A DNA stretch of 64,000 bases from Eledone cirrhosa (taxonomy: Eukaryota), in NCBI GenBank assembly GCA_964016885.1, contig OZ024743.1:250976001-251040000 (forward strand), read 5' to 3'. Below are positions 1 through 64,000 of this stretch, one piece after another. How positions within the stretch are numbered: the stretch's first letter is position 1; each line of letters opens with the position of its first letter. Made by a program: the position numbers and the translations under genes. The notes beneath the pieces are model-generated. The model was not told the DNA's origin. It ran no database searches and saw only the letters and a program-made list of their open reading frames with translations.

Positions 1-3000
1 TGATGGTGTTGTTGGTGGTGCTATTGTCATTGGTTGTTGATGGTGTTGTTGATGGTGCTATTGTCATTGGTTGTTGATGGTGTTGTTGGTGATGTTATTG
101 TCATTGGTTGTTGATGATGTTGTTGGTGATGTTATTGTCATTGGTTGTTGATGGTGTTGTTGGTGATGTTATTATCATTGGTGTTGATGGTGTTGTTGGT
201 GATGTTATTGTCATTGGTTGTTGATGGTGTTGTTGGTGGTGCTATTGTCATTGGTTGTTGATGGTGTTGTTGGTGGTGTTATTGTCATTGGTTGTTGATG
301 GTGTTGTTGGTGATGTTATTGTCATTCGTTGTTGATGGTGTTGTTGGTGATGTTATTATCATTGGTGTTGATGGTGTTGTTGGTGGTGTTATTGTCATTG
401 GTTGTTGATGGTGTTGTTGGTGGTGCTATTGTCATTGGTTGTTGATGGTGTTGTTGGTGATGTTATTGTCATTGGTTGTTGATGGTGTTGTTGGTGATGT
501 TATTGTCATTGGTTGTTGATGGTGTTGTTGGTGATGTTATTATCATTGGTTGTTGATGGTGTTGTTGGTGGTGTTATTGTCATTGGTTGTTGATGGTGTT
601 GTTGGTGATGTTATTGTCATTGGTTGTTGATGGTGTTGTTGGTGGTGTTATTGTCATTGGTTGTTGATGGTGTTCTTGGTGGTGTTATTGTCATTGGTTG
701 TTGATGGTGTTGTTGGTGATATTATTGTCATTGGTTGTTGATGGTGTTGTTGGTGATGTTATTGTCATTGGTTGTTGATGGTGTTGTTGGTGGTGTTATT
801 GTCATTGGTTGCTGATGGTGTTGTTGGTGGTGTTATTGTCATTGGTTGTTGATGGTGTTGTTGGTGGTGTTATTGTCATTGGTTGTTGATGATGTTGTTG
901 GTGGTGTTATTGTCATTGGTTGTTGATGGTGTTGTTGGTGATGTTATTGTCATTGGTTGTTGATGGTGTTGTTGGTGATGTTATTATCATTGGTTGTTGA
1001 TGGTGTTGTTGGTGGTGCTATTGTCATTGGTTGTTGATGGTGTTGTTGGTGATGTTATTGTCATTGGTTGTTGATGGTGTTGTTGGTGGTGTTATTGTCA
1101 TTGGTTGTTGATGGTGTTCTTGGTGGTGTTATTGTCATTGGTTGTTGATGGTGTTGTTGGTGATATTATTGTCATTGGTTGTTGATGGTGTTGTTGGTGA
1201 TGTTATTGTCATTGGTTGTTGATGGCGTTGTTGGTGGTGTTATTGTCATTGGTTGCTGATGGTGTTGTTGGTGGTGTTATTGTCATTGGTTGTTGATGGT
1301 GTTGTTGGTGGTGTTATTGTCATTGGTTGTTGATGATGTTGTTGGTGGTGTTATTGTCATTGGTTGTTGATGGTGTTGTTGGTGGTGTTATTGTCATTGG
1401 TTGTTGATGGTGTTGTTGGTGATATTATTGTCATTGGTTGTTGATGGTGTTGTTGGTGATGTTATTGTCATTGGTTGTTGATGGTGTTGTTGGTGGTGTT
1501 ATTGTCATTGGTTGTTGATGGTGTTGTTGGTGGTGTTATTGTCATTGGTTGCTGATGGTGTTGTTGGTGATGTTATTGTCATTGGTTGTTGATGGTGTTG
1601 TTGGTGGTGTTATTGTCATTGGTTGCTGATGGTGTTGTTGGTGATGTTATTGTCATTGGTTGTTGATGGTGTTGTTGGTGGTGTTATTGTCATTGGTTGT
1701 TGATGATGTTGTTGGTGATGTTATTGTCATTGGTTGTTGATGGTGTTGTTGGTGGTGTTATTGTCATTGGTTGTTGATGATGTTGTTGGTGATGTTATTG
1801 TCATTGGTTGTTGATGGTGTTGTTGGTGGTGTTATTGTCATTGGTTGTTGATGGTGTTGTTGGTGGTCTTATTGTCATTGGTTGTTGATGGTGTTGTTGG
1901 TGATGTTATTGTCATTGGTTGTTGATGGTGTTGTTGGTGATGTTATTGTCATTGGTTGTTGATGATGTTGTTGGTGATGTTATTGTCATTGGTTGTTGAT
2001 GGTGTTGTTGGTGATGTTATTGTCATTGGTGGTTGATGGTGTTGTTGGTGATGTTATTTTCATTGGTTGTTGATGGTGTTGTTGGTGATGTTATTGTCAT
2101 TGGTTGTTGATGGTGTTGTTGGTGGTGTTATTGTCATTGGTTGTTGATGCTGTTGTTGGTGGTGCTATTGTCATTGGTGTTGATGGTGTTGTTGGTGATG
2201 TTATTGTCATTGGTTGTTGATGGTGTTGTTGGTGATGTTATTGTCATTGGTTGTTGATGGTGTTGTTGGTGATGTTATTATCATTGGTGTTGATGGTGTT
2301 GTTGGTGGTGTTATTGTCATTGGTTGTTGATGGTGTTGTTGGTGGTGTTATTGTCATTGGTTGCTGAGGGTGTTGTTGGTGATGTTATTGTCATTGGTTG
2401 TTGATGGTGTTGTTGGTGGTGCTATTGTCATTGGTTGTTGATGGTGTTGTTGGTGGTGCTATTGTCATTGGTTGTTGATGGTGTTGTTGGTGATGTTATT
2501 GTCATTGGTTGTTGATGGTGTTGTTGGTGGTGTTATTGTCATTGGTTGTTGATGGTGTTGTTGGTGATGTTATTGTCATTGGTTGTTGATGATGTTGTTG
2601 GTGATGTTATTGTCATTGGTTGTTGATGGTGTTGTTGGTGATGTTATTATCATTGGTGTTGATGGTGTTGTTGGTGATGTTATTGTCATTGGTTGTTGAT
2701 GGTGTTGTTGGTGATGTTATTGTCATTGGTTGTTGATGGTGTTGGTGATGTTATTGTCATTGGTTGTTGATGGTGTTGGTGATGTTATTGTCATTGGTTG
2801 TTGATGGTGTTGTTGGTGGTGCTATTGTCATTGGTTGTTGATGGTGTTATTGGTGGTGCTATTGTCATTGGTTGTTGATGGTGTTGTTGGTGATGTTATT
2901 GTCATTGGTTGTTGATGATGTTGTTGGTGATGTTATTGTCATTGGTTGTTGATGGTGTTGTTGGTGATGTTATTATCATTGGTGTTGATGGTGTTGTTGG

Positions 3001-6000
3001 TGATGTTATTGTCATTGGTTGTTGATGGTGTTGTTGGTGGTGCTATTGTCATTGGTTGTTGATGGTGTTGTTGGTGGTGTTATTGTCATTGGTTGTTGAT
3101 GGTGTTGTTGGTGATGTTATTGTCATTCGTTGTTGATGGTGTTGTTGGTGATGTTATTATCATTGGTGTTGATGGTGTTGTTGGTGGTGTTATTGTCATT
3201 GGTTGTTGATGGTGTTGTTGGTGGTGTTATTGTCATTGGTTGTTGATGGTGTTGTTGGTGATGTTATTGTCATTGGTTGTTGATGGTGTTGTTGGTGGTG
3301 CTATTGTCATTGGTTGTTGATGGTGTTGTTGGTGGTGTTATTGTCATTGGTTGTTGATGGTGTTGTTGGTGATGTTATTGTCATTGGTTGTTGATGGTGT
3401 TGTTGGTGGTGCTATTGTCATTGGTTGTTGATGGTGTTGTTGGTGGTGTTATTGTCATTGGTTGTTGATGGTGTTGTTGGTGATGTTATTGTCATTCGTT
3501 GTTGATGGTGTTGTTGGTGATGTTATTATCATTGGTGTTGATGGTGTTGTTGGTGGTGTTATTGTCATTGGTTGTTGATGGTGTTGTTGGTGGTGCTATT
3601 GTCATTGGTTGTTGATGGTGTTGTTGGTGATGTTATTGTCATTGGTTGTTGATGGTGTTGTTGGTGATGTTATTGTCATTGGTTGTTGATTGTGTTGTTG
3701 GTGATGTTATTATCATTGGTGTTGATGGTGTTGTTGGTGGTGTTATTGTCATTGGTTGTTGATGGTGTTGTTGGTGGTGTTATTGTCATTGGTTGTTGAT
3801 GGTGTTGTTGGTGATATTATTGTCATTGGTTGTTGATGGTGTTGTTGGTGATGTTATTGTCATTGGTTGTTGATGGTGTTGTTGGTGGTGTTATTGTCAT
3901 TGGTTGTTGATGATGTTGTTGGTGATGTTATTGTCATTGGTTGTTGATGGTGTTGTTGGTGGTGTTATTGTCATTGGTTGTTGATGATGTTGTTGGTGAT
4001 GTTATTGTCATTGGTTGTTGATGGTGTTGTTGGTGGTGTTATTGTCATTGGTTGTTGATGGTGTTGTTGGTGGTGTTATTGTCATTGGTTGTTGATGGTG
4101 TTGTTGGTGATGTTATTGTCATTGGTTGTTGATGGTGTTGTTGGTGATGTTATTGTCATTGGTTGTTGATGATGTTGTTGGTGATGTTATTGTCATTGGT
4201 TGTTGATGGTGTTGTTGGTGATGTTATTGTCATTGGTTGTTGATGGTGTTGTTGGTGATGTTATTTTCATTGGTTGTTGATGGTGTTGTTGGTGATGTTA
4301 TTGTCATTGGTTGTTGATGGTGTTGTTGGTGATGTTATTGTCATTGGTTGTTGATGGTGTTGTTGGTGATGTTATTATCATTGGTGTTGATGGTGTTGTT
4401 GGTGGTGTTATTGTCATTGGTTGTTGATGGTGTTGTTGGTGGTGTTATTGTCATTGGTTGCTGATGGTGTTGTTGGTGATGTTATTGTCATTGGTTGTTG
4501 ATGGTGTTGTTGGTGGTGCTATTGTCATTGGTTGTTGATGGTGTTGTTGGTGGTGCTATTGTCATTGGTTGTTGATGGTGTTGTTGGTGATGTTATTGTC
4601 ATTGGTTGTTGATGGTGTTGTTGGTGGTGTTATTGTCATTGGTTGTTGATGGTGTTGTTGGTGATGTTATTGTCATTGGTTGTTGATGATGTTGTTGGTG
4701 ATGTTATTGTCATTGGTTGTTGATGGTGTTGTTGGTGATGTTATTATCATTGGTGTTGATGGTGTTGTTGGTGATGTTATTGTCATTGGTTGTTGGTGGT
4801 GTTGTTGGTGATGTTATTGTCATTGGTTGTTGATGGTGTTGGTGATGTTATTGTCATTGGTTGTTGATGGTGTTGGTGATGTTATTGTCATTGGTTGTTG
4901 ATGGTGTTGTTGGTGGTGCTATTGTCATTGGTTGTTGATGGTGTTGTTGGTGGTGCTATTGTCATTGGTTGTTGATGGTGTTGTTGGTGATGTTATTGTC
5001 ATTGGTTGTTGATGGTGTTGTTGGTGATGTTATTGTCATTGGTTGTTGATGGTGTTGTTGGTGATGTTATTATCATTGGTGTTGATGGTGTTGTTGGTGA
5101 TGTTATTGTCATTGGTTGTTGATGGTGTTGTTGGTGGTGCTATTGTCATTGGTTGTTGATGGTGTTGTTGGTGATGTTATTGTCATTGGTTGTTGATGGT
5201 GTTGTTGGTGATGTTATTATCATTGGTTGTTGATGGTGTTGTTGGTGATGTTATTATCATTGGTGTTGATGGTGTTGTTGGTGATGTTATTGTCATTGGT
5301 TGTTGATGATGTTGTTGGTGATGTTATTGTCATTGGTTGTTGATGGTGTTGTTGGTGATGTTATTATCATTGGTGTTGATGGTGTTGTTGGTGATGTTAT
5401 TGTCATTGGTTGTTGATGGTGTTGTTGGTGGTGCTATTGTCATTGGTTGTTGATGGTGTTGTTGGTGGTGTTATTTTCATTGGTTGTTGATGGTGTTGTT
5501 GGTGATGTTATTGTCATTCGTTGTTGATGGTGTTGTTGGTGATGTTATTATCATTGGTGTTGATGGTGTTGTTGGTGGTGTTATTGTCATTGGTTGTTGA
5601 TGGTGTTGTTGGTGGTGTTATTGTCATTGGTTGTTGATGGTGTTGTTGGTGATGTTATTGTCATTGGTTGTTGATGGTGTTGTTGGTGGTGCTATTGTCA
5701 TTGGTTGTTGATGGTGTTGTTGGTGGTGTTATTGTCATTGGTTGTTGATGGTGTTGTTGGTGATGTTATTGTCATTGGTTGTTGATGGTGTTGTTGGTGG
5801 TGCTATTGTCATTGGTTGTTGATGGTGTTGTTGGTGGTGTTATTGTCATTGGTTGTTGATGGTGTTGTTGGTGATGTTATTGTCATTCGTTGTTGATGGT
5901 GTTGTTGGTGATGTTATCATCATTGGTGTTGATGGTGTTGTTGGTGGTGTTATTGTCATTGGTTGTTGATGGTGTTGTTGGTGGTGCTATTGTCATTGGT

Positions 6001-9000
6001 TGTTGATGGTGTTGTTGGTGATGTTATTGTCATTGGTTGTTGATGGTGTTGTTGGTGATGTTATTGTCATTGGTTGTTGATGGTGTTGTTGGTGATGTTA
6101 TTATCATTGGTGTTGATGGTGTTGTTGGTGGTGTTATTGTCATTGGTTGTTGATGGTATTGTTGGTGGTGTTATTGTCATTGGTTGTTGATGGTGTTGTT
6201 GGTGATGTTATTGTCATTGGTTGTTGATGGTGTTGTTGGTGATATTATTGTCATTGGTTGTTGATGGTGTTGTTGGTGATGTTATTGTCATTGGTTGTTG
6301 ATGGTGTTGTTGGTGGTGTTATTGTCATTGGTTGCTGATGGTGTTGTTGGTGGTGTTATTGTCATTGGTTGTTGATGGTGTTGTTGGTGGTGTTATTGTC
6401 ATTGGTTGTTGATGATGTTGTTGGTGATGTTATTGCCATTGGTTGTTGATGGTGTTGTTGGTGGTGTTATTGTCATTGGTTGTTGATGGTGTTGTTGGTG
6501 GTGTTATTGTCATTGGTTGCTGATGGTGTTGTTGGTGATGTTATTGTCATTGGTTGTTGATGGTGTTGTTGGTGATATTATTGTCATTGGTTGTTGATGG
6601 TGTTGTTGGTGATGTTATTGTCATTGGTTGTTGATGGTGTTGTTGGTGGTGTTATTGTCATTGGTTGCTGATGGTGTTGTTGGTGATGTTATTGTCATTG
6701 GTTGTTGATGGTGTTGTTGGTGATATTATTGTCATTGGTTGTTGATGGTGTTGTTGGTGATGTTATTGTCATTGGTTGTTGATGGTGTTGTTGGTGGTGT
6801 TATTGTCATTGGTTGTTGATGGTGTTGTTGGTGATGTTATTGTCATTGGTTGTTGATGGTGTTGTTGGTGATGTTATTGTCATTGGTTGTTGATGGTGTT
6901 GTTGGTGATGTTATTGTCATTGGTTGTTGATGGTGTTGTTGGTGATATTATTGTCATTGGTTGTTGATGGTGTTGTTGGTGATGTTATTGTCATTGGTTG
7001 TTGATGGTGTTGTTGGTGATGTTATTGTCATTGGTTGTTGATGGTGTTGTTGGTGATATTATTGTCATTGGTTGTTGATGATGTTGTTGGTGATGTTATT
7101 GTCATTGGTTGTTGATGGTGTTGTTGGTGGTGTTATTGTCATTGGTTGTTGATGGTGTTGTTGGTGGTGTTATTGTCATTGGTTGTTGATGGTGTTGTTG
7201 GTGGTGCTATTGTCATTGGTTGTTGATGGTGTTGTTGGTGGTGCTATTGTCATTGGTTGTTGATGGTGTTGTTGGTGATGTTATTGTCATTGGTTGTTGA
7301 TGGTGTTGTTGGTGGTGTTATTGTCATTGGTTGTTGATGGTGTTGTTGGTGATATTATTGTCATTGGTTGTTGATGGTGTTGTTGGTGATGTTATTGTCA
7401 TTGGTTGTTGATGATGTTGTTGGTGATGTTATTGTCATTGGTTGTTGATGATGTTGTTGGTGATGTTATTGTCATTGGTTGTTGATGGTGTTGTTGGTGA
7501 TGTTATTGTCATTGGTTGTTGATGATGTTGTTGGTGATGTTATTGTCATTGGTTGTTGATGGTGTTGTTGGTGATGTTATTATCATTGGTGTTGATGGTG
7601 TTGTTGGTGATGTTATTGTCATTGGTTGTTGATGGTGTTGTTGGTGATGTTATTGTCATTGGTTGTTGATGGTGTTGGTGATGTTATTGTCATTGGTCGT
7701 TGATGGTGTTGGTGATGTTATTGTCATTGGTTGTTGATGGTGTTGTTGGTGGTGCTATTGTCATTGGTTGTTGATGGTGTTGTTGGTGGTGCTATTGTCA
7801 TTGGTTGTTGATGGTGTTGTTGGTGATGTTATTGTCATTGGTTGTTGATGATGTTGTTGGTGATGTTATTGTCATTGGTTGTTGATGGTGTTGTTGGTGA
7901 TGTTATTATCATTGGTGTTGATGGTGTTGTTGGTGATGTTATTGTCATTGGTTGTTGATGGTGTTGTTGGTGGTGCTATTGTCATTGGTTGTTGATGGTG
8001 TTGTTGGTGGTGTTATTGTCATTGGTTGTTGATGGTGTTGTTGGTGATGTTATTGTCATTCGTTGTTGATGGTGTTGTTGTTGATGTTATTATCATTGGT
8101 GTTGATGGTGTTGTTGGTGGTGTTATTGTCATTGGTTGTTGATGGTGTTGTTGGTGGTGCTATTGTCATTGGTTGTTGATGGTGTTGTTGGTGATGTTAT
8201 TGTCATTGGTTGTTGATGGTGTTGTTGGTGGTGCTATTGTCATTGGTTGTTGATGGTGTTGTTGGTGGTGCTATTGTCATTGGTTGTTGATGGTGTTGTT
8301 GGTGATGTTATTGTCATTGGTTGTTGATGGTGTTGTTGGTGATGTTATTATCATTGGTGTTGATGGTGTTGTTGGTGGTGTTATTGTCATTGGTTGTTGA
8401 TGGTGTTGTTGGTGATGTTATTGTCATTGGTTGTTGATGGTGTTGTTGGTGATGTTATTGTCATTGGTTGTTGATGGTGTTGTTGGTGATGTTATTATCA
8501 TTGGTGTTGATGGTGTTGTTGGTGGTGTTATTGTCATTGGTTGTTGATGGTGTTGTTGGTGGTGTTATTGTCATTGGTTGTTGATGGTGTTGTTGGTGAT
8601 ATTATTGTCATTGGTTGTTGATGGTGTTGTTGGTGATGTTATTGTCATTGGTTGTTGATGGTTTTGTTGGTGGTGTTATTGTCATTGGTTGCTGATGGTG
8701 TTGTTGCTGGTGTTATTGTCATTGGTTGTTGATGGTGTTGTTGGTGGTGTTATTGTCATTGGTTGTTGATGATGTTGTTGGTGATGTTATTGTCATTGGT
8801 TGTTGATGGTGTTGTTGGTGGTGTTATTGTCATTGGTTGTTGATGGTGTTGTTGGTGGTGTTATTGTCATTGGTTGTTGATGGTGTTGTTGGTGATGTTA
8901 TTGTCATTGGTTGTTGATGGTGTTGTTGGTGATGTTATTGTCATTGGTTGTTGATGATGTTGTTGGTGATGTTATTGTCATTGGTTGTTGATGGTGTTGT

Positions 9001-21909: not shown

Positions 21910-21913
<4 letters not shown>

Positions 21914-22484
21914 CAATTTAAAAATTAAAAAATATATGATCAACACTACTGTGTTTTTTTGCAAAATGACAATAATTTTTTAGCCAGATAGAAATACCTT
22001 AATTCAAGTACATATAGTCGGTCTGTATCGATCTAGAGAATTTTAAATATTAAATCTATGCTTACAGACGTAAAATGGCAACTGCCTGGTGCTTAGACAA
22101 GTTTAAATTTCAAAATTCAAACCTTTTCAGCAGATCGGGCGGAACTTCAAAACATAAACCTGTTTCACAAGGGATGTTATACTAATGAAATAATTAATTA
22201 ATTACGGAACAACTATTTATAAAATAATTATTAGTGAAGTAATAAATTTTCTGTGATCTTCGGTAGGCACCTAGAAATTAAAATCACTTCTCCTAAGATA
22301 ATATCTTAAGACTGATCTGTCGCAAGCCTAATACATATGCTTTTGCACACGACCTTCTCACCATTCTGGCTCATATCCATGGCGCTAGAAATAACAGCCG
22401 TGAATATGTGATTATGAATTCAGCTCAACCGAAGGAGCAGATAATTTTCTTAGAGCTTAATATTTGTAAATGACTACTAAACTG

Positions 22485-22490
<6 letters not shown>
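21910..22490. mobile_element. (TA)n-flanked PLE-derived fragment related to the 61795-62450 fold-back
   Basis: Shares tttaaatttcaaaattcaaacct (minus strand reads ..KGLNFEI*) and gagcttaat..ttgtaaatgact with 61950-62435. Confidence 0.55.
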
Positions 22491-33140: not shown

Positions 33141-34579
33141 CTCCTAATTTACTTAATAAAGCCCTCATCTATGCATCTAAACATACAGATTCATCTAGCG
33201 AAGAAATGCATATCATTTTAACCCCACGGAAAGCTTTAATTGAATTCAACAATGATCTCTTGACTAGAACTGAGAGAAAAAAAAGTTTTGATATTACCAT
33301 GGGGTCATCGAACTCGGCGCAAATAACGGATCTTGTGAGGCTATTTATTAATAATACACTACATAGAAAAATACCAGAGATGACCCGAGGTTTATATCGT
33401 GATGACATGCTGCTTTTAATTGAAAATCATAGTAATTGTGAAATTAATAGAAAAAGAAAATCAATAATACAATTTTTCAATAGCTACAATCTTAAGTTAG
33501 AAATAGAGAATAACTATAAAATTGTTAACTTTTTAGACGTAACATTAAACCTTAACACAGGGCTCTACTATCCATTCCATAAAATTAATGAGAATGTAAA
33601 CTATGTAAGTTTTAACTCTAATCATCCTAGATCTATCAAGAACACTATTGTTAATTCTATCCAACAACGGATTTCACGCATCTCCGCTAATAAAAACATT
33701 TTTGACGATAAGGCAGAATATTATAATGAAAATTTAAATAGAGCAGGTTATATAAATAAGATTAAATACATCGACAACAGTGATAAGGCAAATAACCCTA
33801 CTATTAATTATAATTATAATTACAATAAAAAATCTAACTTAAACTCTAAAACTAACAGAAATAATAGAACTAGAAATATAATTTGGTACTCACCCCCATT
33901 CTCATTAAGGGTTAAACACCTTTAGCAAAGCTATTCTTTAAAGCACTAGATAAATGTTTTCCTAAAGCCCACAGATACCACTCAATTTTTAACAGACATA
34001 CAATAAAACTATCTTACTCTACTACTATGAACATAGCACAAAATATAAATAGAATCAATAATAGAAATTTAAACCATAACCAAAATAGCAGTAATATCTC
34101 TAGCAATATCCAACATAATAGTACCGTTCCGAATAACATAAACTCCGCTAAATGTAACTGTAGAATTAAATCAAACTGTCCTTTAAAAAATAAGTGCTTA
34201 GATAAGGACGTGGTCTATAAATGCAGTCAAAACCAGTGATAATATATTTAACTATGTAGGTTCAACTTCTACAGACTTTAAAAGTCGTTGGAATAATCAC
34301 AAATGCTTTTTCAGAAAACTTGATAAAAAATCTTCAACTTCTCTATCAAACCTGATATGGAACTTAAAATCCAAAAATATGGACTATTCTTTAACTTGGG
34401 AAATAATTTCATAAGCACCTGCCTACCAAAACACAGCTTTATCTAGATTTTGCAAATTGTGTGTTGAGGAAATTTTCTTCATACTTAAATATAAGAACTC
34501 TATTAATGTACGGACGAATTTATTTAGTTCTTGTAAACATCGCCTAAACTCAACGTTTAGAACTATATACAAATTATAA
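33141..34579 (+). pseudogene. PLE RT / GIY-YIG endonuclease ORF, truncated and frameshifted
   Basis: ORFs 33206-33925 and 34027-34239 plus the downstream frame join through frameshifts near 33920 and 34230. Ends SCKHRLNSTFRTIYKL* at 34579. Confidence 0.9.
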
Positions 34580-47619: not shown

Positions 47620-49355
47620 AAAAATAATTATAAAAATGTTCGCTTTACATGGCTGAATACAATAAATGTAATCTGACTTTTTCGAATATTAATAATATTC
47701 GATTCGTTTGCAATTATGCAAACAAGCCTCATTTTTAAAGCAATGTCAGTAGAATGAGCCCCTCATTCTTGCTCTTGCGTTGGCATGTAAACAGAACTGA
47801 AGACACTAATGTTTCTGGGTTTTACTCTTCATCAGTATAGTTCACTGTTCACCTTCCAACTGTCAATGCTAGTGAAAATATATGATATTTTCTAAAATAT
47901 ATAGTGACTGATCGGCCTGATTTGCATATTAGCAGACGGGCTGATCACTCAGATGTGCATATTAGCAGATCCACTGATCAACCAGATTTGCATATCAGCA
48001 GACTGGCCAGTCAGTTTCCTGTATACGAGAGATCAATGACCGGCTTTGCCATATTAAATAAAAAAAAAATTTCGCTCTACTTGATTGAATACAATAAATT
48101 TAATCTGAGTTTTTCGAATATTAATAATAATATTCGATTCGTTTGCAATTATGCAAACAAGCCTCATTTTTAAAGCCATATTAATATAAGTAATGGTATA
48201 AACATAAAATATACTTAGCTACCGCATCAAGACGTAAATTATCCGCGTATTGTCCATACTATCCGTTAGGGTATAACGTGGGGCTGTAATACAGGAAGGT
48301 TTTATGCAATTTGTGTTTACAAGCCGAAATTGCCTCAGATTTTTTGTTTAAGATGTAATCATTAGCGTAGATTATTTCCAGGGCTTCAGCGGCACAGAGA
48401 TCGCATGGTCTTTTGTTTCCGTTATACGATCTAGCTTTAGCTAGGGTCTCCCAGTGTAACCTATATTGGGCGTGGTTGTCTTTTAGACTCCAGATATAAG
48501 CCGAAAGTGACGTCATGTTCCTTCTTAAAGCGTTAAGAAAAGAAAGGGTGTGCATGTAAATACGCTGCTTGAATCTATTGGCGGTTAACCCTATGTAGGC
48601 CCTACTAAACGTTGGTGTTTCGACCTTACATTTGTAGACAATATTACTGGAGAGGCATTTCTCGGATAGAGGGCAGTCTACCCGATTCCTACAATTACAG
48701 TTAGTACTAGCTACAGGGTTGTTAGTGTTATTATGGCTAGGTAATTCGGCTAAATTTGATGCAGTGATGTTATGTGTAAAGTTAGGAGTCGTGGAGTAAG
48801 ATATTTTAACGGTATTTCTATTAAAAATGTTATTATATTTATGTGCTGAGGGGAAATGTTTCTTAATTAGAGAGAGAAAGATTTTAGCTAAAGGTGTGGC
48901 CACTTTCATATTATATGGTGGGTTATACCATATAATGCGTCGGGATCTATTTTTCCTAGGTTTATTGTTCATACTTAGTATGTTCTACCTTATCAACAAA
49001 TCCGCTCCGAGCAAGAGCTTCATTGTAATATGTGGAATGATCGGTGAACATATGTTCGTTTGTAGATAGACGAGAAAGCCTCAATGAAACGTTTCTTACT
49101 AGGTTCTTGGTTATGCTGGCAGGATGGTTAGAATGCTTACTGATGTAATTAAGCGTATCATTCGGCTTTCTATACGGGTAGTGCAAGCCATTTGGCAATT
49201 TGAGTGTAACGTCGAGGTAGTTTACAACAGAAAGGCTGGCCTCAACTTGTATGGAGAGGTTGAAGCCTTTAAAGAAAGATGTGAGTTCTTTCCTAAACCT
49301 ATCGCAAGCGCGGGGACCGCACTTGGTCATGGTCAAAAGACCGCCATCACGGTAG
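47620..49355 (-). mobile_element. Second 5'-truncated Penelope-like element (Naiad-like) with direct-repeat pseudo-LTR
   Basis: ORFs 48962-49375 (YRD(G)GL, NYLDVTL, SNHP) and 48259-48972 (WYNPPY, CNCRNRVDCP, IVYKC..YIGLT, CDLCAAE). Direct repeats at 47638-47740 and 48072-48175. Confidence 0.92.
47794..47843 (-). ncRNA. Hammerhead motif in the 3' region of the PLE
   Basis: Minus strand: gaactata-CTGATGA-agagt[aaa]accca-GAAA-cat[ta]gtg-TC-ttcagttc. Core intact, stems I and II with mismatches. Confidence 0.7.
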
Positions 49356-57769: not shown

Positions 57770-60700
57770 CATTAACAAGAGGAAGGCAGCGACAACAACA
57801 GTGTCATTAACAACAACAACTCTACCATTAACAATAGGAAGCCAACCCCAGCATCAGTGACTCACCACCAGCCACTAGGTCCTATGACAAACTGCTCAGT
57901 TGCTAGCATGTGTGCGTGCTGAACTCTGGGTCTTTCCGATGGGAACAACCCCTTGTTTCCACCACCCCCACACTTTTTTGTGTACATCCATCCATTCACT
58001 CATTCATTTACTGCCATTCTACCTTCCTGTGTCTCCCCCTCCATGCAGCCCCTTTTCGCTCTCGTTTTCTGGCACCTCTAGGTGAGCTATGCTGCCCTCT
58101 TACCAGCACTTTCCCTTCCACCCACACTCGCCACCCACCCATCCCTGGTGCCGCTCGGTGCCCCAGTCCCCGGTCCCACGCCCCACCCCCACCCTTCCAA
58201 ATCGACACTTGCAGCACTTGCGGCACCACTAACAAACGGAAGAGGGGCCGGAACTGTTTGGGGTGCGGCTGCTTCCACCACCTCACCTGTCTTGGCTTGA
58301 CTCGTCGAGTTTCCAATGCCCTCGCAGCGTAGAAGTGCAGGAGCTGCCTCTTCCCCACGTCTTCCCACCACGGCCGTCTGGCACACCACCAGATGGGACA
58401 GCGAGCTTGCCTGACGCCCGAGCCTCGCTAGTCAACATTGCTCGGCTCAGGCGGCTCCGGAAGATCCCACTCAGGATCCCGAGAGCGGCACGGGTGCCGG
58501 TAGCCGATGCCCTCGCTTCCTCAATTGAGAGCGCCCTGGACTCCAATCGAGCCAGTGACTGGGAGCGGCTGTTCTATTTCGCCCCACTCGCCCTCGGCCT
58601 CCCCAGCTCTGGCGCTGACCGGGGCGGCCGGTCAACAGCAGCCGTCGTCAAGGCCAATGTCTCGTCATTTGGGCGAGCGCCCATTCCAAGCGTGCCCAGG
58701 GACACCACAGACCCCACCCTGAGGTACCCCCTATCCTCCACCCCCGAGGCCAGTGCCAAGCGTTAACGTGACCAGGTAAACGCAAATCTTATCATGGGTG
58801 ATGTCTCGGCCGCAGTCAGAGTTGTTGCCTCAGAGGACACTGTCCTCCAACCCACCGAGGAGGTCGTGGCTGCTCTGCGGCTCAAACACCCTGAGCCACC
58901 CACTGATCTCAGACCCCATACCCCCACCCAATCCCCACCTGCTCCTTGTGGCTACTGATGCAGATATCATGTCCGCCCTCAGGTCCTTCCCAGCTAGCAG
59001 CAGCGGAGGTGTTGATGGTCTCCGACCAGGCCACCTCAGGGAGTTGACATCCCCCTATCCGCTGAGGCCGGCGCCGCCTTCTGAGTGCAATTGTGGTGCT
59101 CACCAATAGCCTCATTCATGGTGCCCTCGACCCTTACGCCCGAGGCCTCTTTTTTTCGGCCAGCCTCAACGCTCTCAGGAAGAAAGAGGGTGGCATACTC
59201 CCCATTGCTATGGGCAATGTCTTCTGGCGGCTGGCTGCCAAGGTGATCTGCAAGTCCGTCACACACGAACTGGGTGAGGAGTTTAGTACGGTGCAACTGG
59301 GTGTCGGCGTGTCCGGTGGCTATTTGGGAGCCGCTCATGCAATCAAGCAGTTCTTCAGCAGCTGCCCATCGGTACCGGCATCCAGAGACTCCAGACACCT
59401 CATTATCAAGCTTGACAGGAGGAATGCCTTTAACTCTTTACGCCGGGATCATCTGCTCGAGGCCTGCCTCAGCCGAGCCCCCCTCTGCCTACCCGTTGGC
59501 CTACCTGTCATATGGAGCCCTGAGCATGCTCCTAGCTGCTGATACGTTCATACCCTCGGCTACTGGTGTCCAACAGGGCGACCTTTTGGGACCCCTCCTG
59601 TTCGCCCTTGGTATTGACCACATGGCTCGGAGTATCACGGCCCCTCTCACCGTTTGGTATCTGGATGATGCTACGTTGGGCAGGCCCGTACGGACGGTCT
59701 GCCAAGACCTTCAATCGGTGATTCCTGCCCTGGCGGGAATCGGCCTCCAGGTCAACTTGGCCAAGTCGGAGGTGGTGAACGTCAGCCTCGATGCTGCGAG
59801 CTTTGCAGCCTCCGTCTTGGACGTGCGGTCCATTCTCCGCCAGGTTCAGGTGACCCCCAAAGAGGATGTCCTCATCCTCGGGTCACCGATCCACCCGCCG
59901 GCCATCCGCTCCACCATCAGGTCCAGGCTTCAACAGTTCCAGACTTTCACGAGCCGACTGGGCTTGATTGAGGGCCACCCAGCTCTCTTTCTGCTGAGGA
60001 ACTGCTTCGCCATGCCGAAGCTCCTCTATACATTCCGCAGCGCTCCATGTTACACCCAGACATCTCTCCTCGCTGACCTCAATACTTGTAGCCGAGCAGC
60101 AGCCGAGGGGATATGCAACGTCAAGTTTGACGACACAGAGTGGCAACAGGCCATTTTACCGGTCAGGTATGGCGGCCTTGGCTTCCGGTCCCCGTTTTGA
60201 CTAGCTTTGCCGGCGTATCTTTTGTCGGTAACCTCGTGCCGCGTCCTCGTCAGCAGGGTTCTTCAAAACACAACAGAACCCTTTGTGTTCAGAGAACGTG
60301 AGGCCGCCTATGAGACGTGGGACCGGCTGGGACTTAGCCCAGTAGACCTCCCTCCTCCTCCTCTCCCTCTTGACGTCAAGTCCCCCCCAACGCACTTGGG
60401 ATGCCACCAGTGCAGCCTGGCCTCAGACAAGCTCACGCGCCAGCTTGACCAGCACCACCTTGCTTGTTTTCGTGCGGCCTCCAAACCCCACAGTGGTGCC
60501 TGGCTCCATTCCCTGCCCTCCTTCTCCACTGGAACGCAGCTAGACAACCATAGCCTGCGAATCGGCGTTTCTCTGAGGCTCGGCCTCCGGACCTGCCAGC
60601 CACACCAATGTCGCTGCGGTTCCACCGTGGACTCTTTCGGCCTCCTCCCGCTTTCCTGTCGCCACAGTGCCGACCGCATTCCACGCCATGCTGCCCTCAA

Positions 60701-61190
60701 CGAGGTCATTAAGCATGGCTTGGATGCTGCAGGCTTCCTTTCCCAACTCGACCCGGTGGGGCTGGATCGAGGGGACGGCAAAAGGCCAGATGGCATGACC
60801 ATCTTCCCGTTCCGCGGTGGCAAACTCCTCGTCTGGGATGCCACTTGCACCGACACTTTCTGCAACCGCAACCTGGTGCAGACTGCGACTGACCCAGGTT
60901 ATGATGCACGTCGGGCTGAGGGGGCCAAACTACTCAAATACCGGTCGCTCTCCGACAGGTTTGCAGTCGTTCCCCTGGCAGTGGAGACTTCTGGTGTCCT
61001 CGGCCCCAGGGCTACCTCCTTACTCACCGCCATAGGCGCTGAGCTGGCCAGCCGCAGGTGTGAGCCCCGCGAGTTGGAGTGGCATTTCCAGCGCGTCTCC
61101 CTTGCCGTCCTCCGGGAAAACGCCTTCTCCATTCTGTCCGCCGGGGCTGTGGGTGGGCCCCATCACGTACCAATACATTAGTTAAATACC
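57770..61190 (+). mobile_element. CRE-clade non-LTR retrotransposon (single RT-RLE ORF), near full length, frameshifted
   Basis: SSGGVDGLRPGHL, LRKKEGGILPIAMG, QLGVGVSGG, KLDRRNAFNSL, GVQQGDLLGPLLF, WYLDDATLG, YGGLG, CRCG zinc knuckle, RHAALN, KRPDG, WDATC, EGAKLLKY and PLAVETSG. GC-rich block with sharp borders. Confidence 0.92.
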
Positions 61191-61702
61191 ATTCTTTCAT
61201 CTGATACAACACAATAAAGACTAAAGTGTTTATAAACACAAGGGAGGAGGTCAGATGTACTTAACAAAAAATACCACAACAGATTGTCTTGCCTCAGAAA
61301 AAAAATTCTATAGACTTTTGACTGAGGAATGTTCTTACAACTGACCAATGGGAGGAGAGAGTGTCCTATGATGCCGAAATTTGTTTGTCCGAATTCATAT
61401 GATTCCAGTTCCTCAGAGAAATAACAACCCAACCAGGAGCTGGATATATCGGAGTTTTGACGGAGTAAAACACTGTACCCGTCTCTACCACACCAATTCG
61501 AACTGCCTGAAGAGGTCACAGCCAATGATGGCTGTCACCGAAATATATATAGCAGTACATCTTTAATAAACGAAGCCAAATCTTGAATATTTGACTTAAT
61601 TACTTTATTTTACATTACTCCGGAGTAACCAAACCAACCTGCGTACTTCATCGAGTGCTCCAATCTGCATACTGAGGTGTCGGTAAACAACCAACATATA
61701 CT

Positions 61703-61705: not shown

Positions 61706-61794
<89 letters not shown>

Positions 61795-61799
<5 letters not shown>

Positions 61800-62376
61800 A
61801 AGTGTACGATAAACACGAAATGTGTTTACATTGCAACAGACAAAGTTAGCTATTAATGAAATAAACTAATAAAAGTGAATACAATTTGTCTGTCTCGATA
61901 TAAGTCAATAAAGACAATATTATATTGGCAACAGCCATGATTCCTGGACATATTTAAATTTCAAAATTCAAACCTGTTCTGTAGACGAATTTGAACCTCG
62001 AAACCCAAATAAGTTTCGCAACGGTGGAATGTGAATTGAAAAATAAAGAGAATCGAAATGGGATAGAAATAAAAGAGTGAAATACCCATTTCACTCTTTT
62101 ATTTCTATCCCATTTCGATTCTCTTTATTTTTCAATTCACATTCCACCGTTGCGAAACTTATTTGGGTTTCGAGGTTCAAATTCGTCTACAGAACAGGTT
62201 TGAATTTTGAAATTTAAATATGTCCAGGAATCATGGCTGTTGCCAATATAATATTGTCTTTATTGACTTATATCGAGACAGACAAATTGTATTCACTTTT
62301 ATTAGTTTATTTCATTAATAGCTAACTTTGTCTGTTGCAATGTAAACACATTTCGTGTTTATCGTACACTTTAAAT
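61795..62376. repeat. Perfect palindrome, 289-bp arms and 4-nt loop
   Basis: 61795-62083 is the exact reverse complement of 62088-62376 by eye; loop accc at 62084-62087. Confidence 0.97.
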
Positions 62377-62451
62377 GTATTAACTGCTCGGAAGAGACCC
62401 TTCCTGGAGCTTAATTATTGTAAATGACTGAGAGTTTATTCTCAAAATATA

Positions 62452-62482
<31 letters not shown>

Positions 62483-62642
62483 GTATCTATCTATATATAT
62501 GTATATGTGTATGTGTGTATGTATGTGTATATGGACGTGTGTATGTATATATATATGTGTGTATGTATGTGTGTGGGTATATGTATATATGCGTGTGGGT
62601 AGGTATATATATATGTATGTATATATATGTATATACATATAT

Positions 62643-62765
62643 ATATATTAGTAAAAAGGGAAAGAAAATGCTGACAAATTGTTCCCAGTGAAATGGGAAA
62701 AATTTGTCAGCATTTTCTTTTCCTTTTTACTAATATATCACAACTCGTGTGTCACACCTCTATTT
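62643..62765. repeat. Short fold-back of the same family as 55107-55473
   Basis: atatattagtaaaaagggaaagaaaatgctgacaaattgttccca-gtgaaa-tgggaaaatttgtcagcattttcttttcctttttactaatatat, then cacaactcgtgtgtcacacctctattt, which is the reverse complement of 55107-55133. Confidence 0.92.
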
Positions 62766-62926
62766 TATATATATATATATTTTTTTTTTTTTCTTACCCT
62801 ATAACCTTACGTTCTGCTTCAGTGTGTATATTTTATTTCTCATCTTTATTTTATTATATATCAGCCTCGCTTTCAATTATAATAGCCTTTGTTTTTAAAT
62901 TCATATCTTATGTCCATATCAAATTG

Positions 62927-62995: not shown

Positions 62996-63089
62996 AATAA
63001 TTGTCTTGTGTTGTTTATTACATAATTAGATAGCTCTGTAGCATACATAGAGCACTCTCGTTTCCTTTACCCCTCCTAATGAAATACTT

Positions 63090-63661
<572 letters not shown>

Positions 63662-64000
63662 CAACTAGAAATTGATTAACATATAAATAAACAAATGAAA
63701 CAATCACAGAGGATAATGTTTACAAGTGTGTAAGCACACATAGCTAGGTAGGTAACTAAATAAAGTTAACTAGAACTTCAAAAATAAATACCTTATAATA
63801 TGATTAATCTTCCCTGTATATATTCCATTAAAGAAATATATTTCACCAATTAATCGAATGGTAAACCACGGAGGCCGATACTTGGATTTTCAACAAGGAA
63901 GAAGTTCAGCTATCTGTGTTTACTTAATTTTGGATATATATATATGTACCGTCTCCTCCGTTATATATATATTGTATGCCCTTTGTGTGTGTGTAGCCTC

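Follow-up and report, generated by a model that had tools for sequence, protein, structure and literature searches.

Insertions of Penelope-like elements (PLEs) are described as partial tandems, often accompanied by an adjacent inverted and 5′-truncated copy, with a tail at one end (PMC8557442). In the account of PMC3846280, PLE target duplications of 8–10 bp surround the composite, and palindromes at the inverted junction are read as the product of self-priming. The tail itself is presented in PMC11167929 as the sequence between two reverse-transcription start sites; the same report describes a PLE protein, predicted to act as a dimer, that cleaves and extends both strands in vitro, with no difference in start site seen between the strands. 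Hammerhead ribozymes are not universal among PLEs, as Naiads and most Chlamys elements are reported to be without one, and Naiads are further described as preferring (TA)n (PMC8557442).

We analyzed a window of 64,000 nt from the 3.0 Gb genome of Eledone cirrhosa (C4:250,976,001–251,040,000) that contains a perfect palindrome of 582 bp. The preliminary description, which gave arms of 289 bp without mismatch, a 4 nt loop, and a start at a (TA)n tract, was borne out by base-by-base comparison: the arms (61795–62083 and 62088–62376) are 289 nt each and differ at 0 of 289 positions, and the sequence at the axis (62084–62087) is ACCC. A repeat search of the window returned arms of 293 nt (61791–62083 and 62088–62380) with 4 nt between them; counted from the axis, complementarity first fails at offset 290, within the TA-rich edge, and we therefore set the perfect arms at 289 nt. 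Folding of the palindrome (582 nt) as single-stranded DNA yields a single hairpin at −344.8 kcal/mol, compared with a mean of −50.6 ± 4.8 kcal/mol for 100 dinucleotide-preserving shuffles (z = −60.8), none of which folded as well. The palindrome in the window is not due to chance.

The two sides of the palindrome differ. The left arm (minus strand) abuts a (TA)n(TG)n(TA)n microsatellite (61706–61794), which is the likely insertion target. The right arm (plus strand), the perfect complement of the left, continues into a "tail" of about 70–74 nt (62377–62450, plus strand) and then into a microsatellite rich in (TA)n and (TG)n (62451–62647). The right-arm continuation had been described as unique sequence followed by another (TA)n; the (TA)n is there, but the continuation belongs to the same repeat as the arm, because each of the 40 scored genomic matches to query positions 1–363 includes it. 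The tail contains an ATG at 62424 (MTESLFSKYNI...), in a frame that is not kept open in related subfamilies. The summed contig word depth around the palindrome is highest just left of the (TA)n tract, at 61494–61700 (up to approximately 500,000–620,000), and this segment is probably another very high-copy repeat. The large "inverted repeats" that the repeat search reported at 63077–63678 are merely (TA)n/(TACA)n microsatellite.

A search of the genome with the right arm and its continuation (62088–62450) gave 2357 first-look candidates, and the 40 full-length matches that were scored are 97–100% identical over 363 nt; one of them, on another contig (C23), is 100% identical over positions 1–363. 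A second search, with a tail-free query (62230–62376), gave 1137 first-look candidates, of which 40 were scored. Thirty returned loci were mapped, and tandem copies at one of them (L020) revealed a unit with a period of 556 bp. We took L020:1864–2419 as the reference and numbered it u1–u556. On this scale, 62088–62450 corresponds to u194–u556, with u1–u193 missing, and the left arm is a 5′-truncated copy of about u194–u486. The palindrome is therefore one unit segment present twice, with both copies truncated at the same point and joined there head to head. One copy ends at the outer 3′ end of the family (the 70 nt tail) and the other at an inner, tail-less 3′ boundary that abuts the (TA)n, and the whole structure lies inside (TA)n. 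The longest stop-to-stop frames of the unit are no more than 70 aa, and its copy number is probably on the order of a thousand. We conclude that it represents a recently active, non-coding, (TA)n-targeting family of approximately 556 bp that was previously unclassified.

The window also holds a diverged subfamily copy of the unit, near full length and on the minus strand, at about 21911–22487; it is 70–82% identical (approximately) in aligned blocks. This is the diverged relative that had been placed at 21910–22490, and its minus strand does read ...KGLNFEI*, with an in-frame TGA just before. Its tail-less end lies at the (TA)n on the left, and an inverted, tail-bearing arm of about 45 nt lies at the (TA)n on the right. 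A third subfamily, in L051, forms a palindrome with arms of about 65 nt. When the three diverged subfamilies are aligned, two blocks are near-invariant: CGGCTGTTATTTCTAGC (columns 91–110) and a block of about 85 nt around TTGCGAAAC...GGTTTGAATTTTGAAATTTAAA (columns 325–410, approximately). In the longer block lies a possible CGAAAC/GTTTCG stem, which wobble changes may have preserved, and both blocks are candidate cis elements for the mobilizing enzyme.

The architecture of the family was examined in 41 distinct insertions, 29 from the first search (in which L020 and L026 overlap) and 12 new ones from the tail-free search. These are the best-scoring matches to our own queries, and the first 29 were chosen for a tail-bearing copy, so that only the tail-less partner is informative in that part of the sample. 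Runs of (TA)5 or longer border the insertion on both flanks in 32 of 41 cases, on one flank in 8, and on neither in 1. Head-to-head pairs, in which the 3′ ends point outward, make up 30 of the 41; the other 11 are single-orientation or tandem insertions, and no tail-to-tail arrangement was seen. All but one of the 30 head-to-head pairs (the exception being L101) have one tail-bearing and one tail-less outer end. The tail-bearing end lies at u556 (plus 6 to 13 nt), and the tail-less end lies 70 nt short of it, at about u486. This one-tail rule is kept by six of the seven pairs that were found only with the tail-free query.

The 5′ truncation points are variable and spread over the unit, and partial tandems are common. 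Tandem stretches reach 999 nt in L020 and 863 nt in L012, and upstream partial copies begin mostly at u457–u498. By manual count, 15 arm 5′ ends cluster in this same interval, which is likely to mark where the full-length RNA starts; the clustering also suggests that transcription driven by the family itself would proceed outward in each arm and not across the axis. In the preliminary description, the palindrome was also proposed to be able to extrude a cruciform or to yield a long hairpin RNA for small-RNA silencing of the family; we treat both as hypothetical. Across the family, arms range from about 23 to 999 nt, junctions overlap by 0–9 nt, and in 10 of the 29 measured pairs the arm without the tail exceeds its partner in length. 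In pure (TA)n, which includes the window locus, a target-site duplication is unreadable; at one locus, L013, it can be read. The family combines partial tandems and 5′ truncation with an inverted head-to-head copy, a one-sided tail, and insertion into (TA)n, all features of PLE-type architecture. A DNA transposon of the Foldback or MITE type, which would have constant terminal inverted repeats and a target duplication of fixed length, was considered and rejected: the axis varies between loci (about u191, u161, u135, and u52), the arm lengths vary, and the two outer ends differ in sequence.

Of the 29 measured pairs, 24 are asymmetric and five form symmetric palindromes. Besides the window locus (arms of 289 nt, loop ACCC, no arm differences, axis at about u191), the symmetric group comprises L003 on C19 (arms of about 322 nt, a loop of 4–6 nt, no differences, axis at about u161), L022 on C24 (about 350 nt, a loop of about 3 nt, 3 differences, about u135), L013 on C4 at 147.03 Mb (about 424 nt, a 19 nt loop, 1 difference, about u52), and L024 on C1 at 123.6 Mb (about 424 nt, an 18 nt loop, 5 differences, about u52). 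As their axes and flanks differ, the five palindromes are independent events. L013 does not lie in pure (TA)n, and ATATTAATAGATA is found on both sides of the entire palindrome as a 13–15 bp target duplication. Because this duplication brackets the whole palindrome, both arms must have entered in one integration. L013 and L024 have almost the same axis (loop CCTGCATAAGCGGCTGTT, u41–58), and this axis adjoins a short segment that is found in the opposite orientation in the diverged copy of the window, at about 22380–22400; it may be a preferred fold-back or pause site.

Near-equality of the arms is more frequent than random pairing would give. Arm lengths agree within 7 nt in 3 of 29 pairs, compared with 0.55 expected when arms are randomly re-paired (P = 0.014), and within 25 nt in 5 of 29, compared with 2.17 expected (P = 0.051). 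The two arms of a locus also resemble each other more than they resemble copies elsewhere: the pooled difference within loci is 0.79% (27 pairs, 5199 nt), whereas comparison between loci gives a mean of 1.78%. On these comparisons, the arms of a pair share an origin. The preliminary description had offered two accounts of the perfect arms, a very recent fold-back insertion or active homogenization of the arms. The first agrees with all of these results (0 differences in 289 nt here, 0–5 differences in sister palindromes with other axes, and the target duplication at L013). The second is not needed, because older sister palindromes have gathered arm differences (3 in about 350 nt and 5 in about 424 nt).

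The same description had derived the palindrome from the 3′ end of a Penelope element, on the strength of a peptide, ...WVSRFKFVYRTGLNFEI*, that was thought to resemble the end of a PLE endonuclease. The frame ...AKLIWVSRFKFVYRTGLNFEI* is indeed present on both arms, but the proposed resemblance failed in four kinds of comparison. A blastx search of the unit against 48 ORFs from PLE-bearing loci gave nothing relevant. Five ORFs of the unit matched no Pfam family at E values up to 10; in the same test, a control PLE ORF (from L073) scored above the cut-off for GIY-YIG and below it for RVT_1. Local DNA alignment of the 95 nt region with 44 GIY-YIG loci gave a best non-family score of 34, compared with 27–34 for shuffled queries, and the only higher scores came from related units that lie in L074 and L033. 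Finally, with an HMM built from 90 distinct endonuclease C termini of this genome, the top 25 hits were all shuffled ORFs and included no real ORF of the unit. The frame is also broken in the subfamilies, by the in-frame TGA of the diverged window copy (about 22100) or by a 1 nt deletion (L074_b), and by manual count the number of amino acid changes from one subfamily to another is close to that expected under neutrality. Two likenesses seen by eye were discarded: that of GLNFEI* to the ...LLNGLNFGLN* end of one PLE family has no backing at the DNA level, and that of the tail to the 3′ UTR of the L061 PLE is not significant, L061 being absent from the top local-alignment scores. What stands of the Penelope assignment is the insertion behavior; derivation from a coding 3′ end is not supported by these tests, and the unit is non-coding.

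Searches for a ribozyme and for a parent element gave a similar picture. No Rfam family reached its gathering score anywhere in the window, and no hammerhead was found in two tandem units at E values up to 10. The suggestion that a search with one arm would rebuild the parent succeeded to the extent that the 556 bp unit was recovered, but no autonomous parent emerged: none of 104 GIY-YIG loci (44 plus 60, out of 150 scored among 10,596 candidates) contains an ORF-bearing partner that shares pLTR or tail sequence with the unit. The sole matches to the unit in these 104 loci (L033 and L074, L051, and L106) are incidental neighboring insertions of related units in shared (TA)n. The unit carries no single ORF with both a PLE reverse transcriptase and a GIY-YIG domain, and so does not qualify as an autonomous EN+ PLE. 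As it shows no coding homology to PLE ORFs, its link to PLEs is one of insertion architecture alone.

ORF-bearing PLEs are abundant in this genome. All 150 scored candidates, out of the 10,596 found in a first-look search for GIY-YIG, lie above the Pfam cut-off, and the long PLE ORFs that were sampled have a C-terminal GIY-YIG domain preceded by a C-x5-C-x2-C motif (a CX5CxxC linker). One such element (L066; G000:C1:438609200–438619199) itself forms a palindrome, with arms of 1732 nt (1913–3644 and 3671–5402) that are 99% complementary and separated by a 26 nt spacer. Two open frames of 551 aa lie head to head within it (1149–6318), and a similar inverted pair of ORFs is found at C1:97887800–97889983.

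The window also contains a small fold-back of another family, about 200 bp to the right of the palindrome (62648–62766, plus strand), with (TA)n on both sides. By our own reading, its arms (62648–62680 and 62701–62733) are about 33 nt long with 1 mismatch and a 21 nt loop, and they are followed by a one-sided tail of about 33 nt (62734–62766) and then by (TA)n. At least 10 GIY-YIG-bearing loci contain sequence that matches it with 83–93% identity. Such matches are found, for instance, next to the L067 and L073 ORFs, and the one in L073 is located immediately upstream of the start of its ORF. From these matches, we assign the small fold-back to the pLTR region of an ORF-bearing PLE family of the L067/L073 type. 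Its short-read word depth is very high (approximately 70,000–190,000, summed over contigs). Three other regions of the window carry traces of mobile elements. A GC-rich retrotransposon remnant at 58233–61181 (plus strand), unlike the AT-rich PLE families in composition, has a frame that matches RVT_1 with an E value of 1.1e-6 (29.0 bits; cut-off 29.6) and contains a YLDD motif, and a 326 aa frame follows it. In tblastn comparisons, 48262–49171 is 86–90% identical to an ORF of L065 seen next to PLEs, and 33278–34558 is 28–45% identical to ORFs seen beside PLEs in other loci; by these similarities, both are remnants of other transposons.

How did the palindrome arise? It is likely that the unit is moved by Penelope-like retrotransposons. 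We give an even chance to the fuller explanation that the palindrome is one very young insertion of the approximately 556 bp non-coding (TA)n repeat with PLE-type architecture, likely produced in a single retrotransposition during which the nascent cDNA primed its own copying by folding back. In such an event, a PLE reverse transcriptase/GIY-YIG endonuclease would act in trans on the unit. Target-primed reverse transcription would begin at the end of the tail and halt about 363 nt in, and the 3′ end of the cDNA would then snap back over a 4 nt turn and prime the synthesis of its mirror image. The mirror strand would end at the inner boundary, either because the endonuclease cleaves there or because the boundary is a second start or stop site for reverse transcription. 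The order of these steps is provisional.

Three observations limit how far self-priming can be taken. Because the tail-bearing arm is the shorter of the two in 10 of 29 pairs, self-copying of a tail-bearing cDNA cannot explain head-to-head pairs in general. Truncation points recur (u193 here and in L028; about u41–65 in L013 and L024), so that pause sites could give symmetry without a snap-back. In addition, three of the four loop bases can, by our own reading, be read as a continuation of the tail-less arm, a detail that would not be expected if the tail-bearing cDNA had simply snapped back. Against the explanation as a whole stand the lack of an ORF-bearing partner in the 104 GIY-YIG loci, the lack of protein similarity between the unit and PLE ORFs, the missing hammerhead, a tail longer than usual, and a sample drawn from the best-scoring matches.

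The observations on arm lengths and truncation points bear on a rather unlikely but substantial alternative, in which PLE-type machinery acts without any snap-back: both (TA)n strands would be cleaved, each would prime reverse transcription of its own RNA molecule, one from the outer and one from the inner start, and the two cDNAs would by chance end at one pause site (u193) and be joined. The asymmetry of 24 of 29 pairs, including the 10 with a longer tail-less arm, is readily accommodated by such two-ended priming. So are the use of u193 as the truncation point of the tail-bearing arm in L028 and the nearly identical axes of L013 and L024, and cleavage and extension of both strands by a protein predicted to dimerize is the activity reported in vitro (PMC11167929). 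The excess of pairs that agree within 7 nt (3 observed, 0.55 expected, P = 0.014) is harder to reconcile with it, as the re-pairing control already contains any hot spots, and loops of 3–4 nt in three of the palindromes are what a hairpin turn gives. Nor is the strict one-tail rule (29 of 30 pairs) predicted by the in vitro result, in which start sites are reported not to differ between strands (PMC11167929).

It is improbable, though less so than the explanations that follow, that the machinery was not of the PLE type at all, and that, for example, a microsatellite-specific LINE acted on a SINE-like RNA, with the fold-back arising by template switching. The unit has no homology to any PLE ORF or pLTR that was sampled, no hammerhead was found in the window or in tandem units, and the RVT_1-bearing remnant just upstream of the palindrome (about 58.2–61.2 kb) does not look like a PLE; all of this would suit such a source. 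Against it, the ORF-bearing PLEs of the genome show the same shapes as the family, and L1 twin priming inverts non-overlapping segments, whereas the arms of this family duplicate one segment. The combination of partial tandems, an inverted 5′-truncated copy (30 of 41 insertions), and two 3′ ends, one per side, is, in the accounts consulted here, described only for PLEs (PMC8557442, PMC3846280).

An origin of the mirror arm after insertion, through an inverted duplication in replication or repair, or the maintenance of an older inverted pair by gene conversion, is very improbable. Either would be in keeping with arms that are identical while copies of the family differ by about 1–2% on average. 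However, the arms terminate precisely at the two canonical 3′ ends and at (TA)n, a pattern kept in 29 of 30 pairs, and the L013 palindrome lies inside one target duplication. The arms of sister palindromes have diverged, so conversion is not keeping them identical, and copies that are 100% identical to the window arm exist at other loci, so zero divergence indicates a young insertion.

An artefact of assembly or of a fold-back chimeric read is the least probable explanation of all, since missing-adapter and fold-back artefacts mirror whole kilobase reads and not a 289 nt segment that ends at element termini, and since the 582 bp lie deep inside a 379 Mb contig with different sequence on the two sides, have the element's canonical ends as their outer ends, and have counterparts at four other loci, which differ in axis, show arm mutations, and at L013 also carry a target duplication; that no listed piece spans the axis among short Logan contigs, which derive from many copies of the family, says nothing either way.

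We conclude that the palindrome is an expected by-product of a known class of transposon, and neither a regulatory hairpin gene nor an assembly error. What is new here is the non-coding family and its clean one-tail rule in vivo. We suggest, tentatively, that in vivo a single PLE-type integration forms its two ends by different means, with the outer 3′ site used on one side and the inner on the other, and that a distinct route of hairpin self-priming gives the perfect palindromes. If this is correct, an abundant, near-identical, non-coding family would be a natural record of integration intermediates, from which the PLE integration pathway could be read, including the first strand to be synthesized and the site at which the endonuclease resolves the intermediate. 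The strict one-tail rule and the recurrent symmetric palindromes provide countable in vivo footprints of PLE integration. Perfect palindromes with arms of 300–430 nt are potential fragile or cruciform-forming sites, and a family that keeps making them may therefore affect genome stability.

Other retrotransposons also produce inverted copies. In the 5′ inversion of L1 elements by twin priming, the inverted segment is made during target-primed reverse transcription, but what is inverted is a different, upstream part of the RNA, and the arms are not duplicates; in the present family, the arms are the same segment duplicated.

Among short non-coding elements, metazoan retrozymes (Cervera and de la Pena, 2020; PMC7229834) resemble the family in that their units are short and non-coding, are often in tandem, and are presumed to be mobilized by PLEs in trans. 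A type I hammerhead is the defining feature of retrozymes; in our unit, no hammerhead could be detected. Non-autonomous Chlamys elements such as MRC1 (PMC8557442) are likewise short non-coding units that are presumed to depend on PLEs in trans; they are reported to share 3′ ends with autonomous families, whereas no such partner was found for our unit in the 104 GIY-YIG loci.

A preference for (TA)n microsatellites is shared with the Naiad and Neptune clades, and Naiads, as described, also lack canonical hammerheads (PMC8557442). The CX2-5CxxC-type linker that has been proposed for microsatellite recognition (PMC8557442) is present in the PLE ORFs sampled in this genome. Naiads are, however, described as having an N-terminal endonuclease (PMC8557442), and in all of the long PLE ORFs sampled here GIY-YIG is C terminal.

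The family differs from EN+ PLEs in that its unit lacks an RT/GIY-YIG ORF, in that neither homology to the PLEs sampled nor a hammerhead could be detected in it, and in the length of its tail (about 70 nt, compared with a published tail of usually 30–40 nt). In the form of its insertions, it agrees with the EN+ PLE insertions described by Arkhipova et al. (2013; PMC3846280) and Craig et al. (2021; PMC8557442) at every point compared: partial tandems, variable 5′ truncation, an inverted and 5′-truncated head-to-head copy, a one-sided tail, targets that are AT-rich or (TA)n, a duplication around the whole composite, and palindromic junctions.
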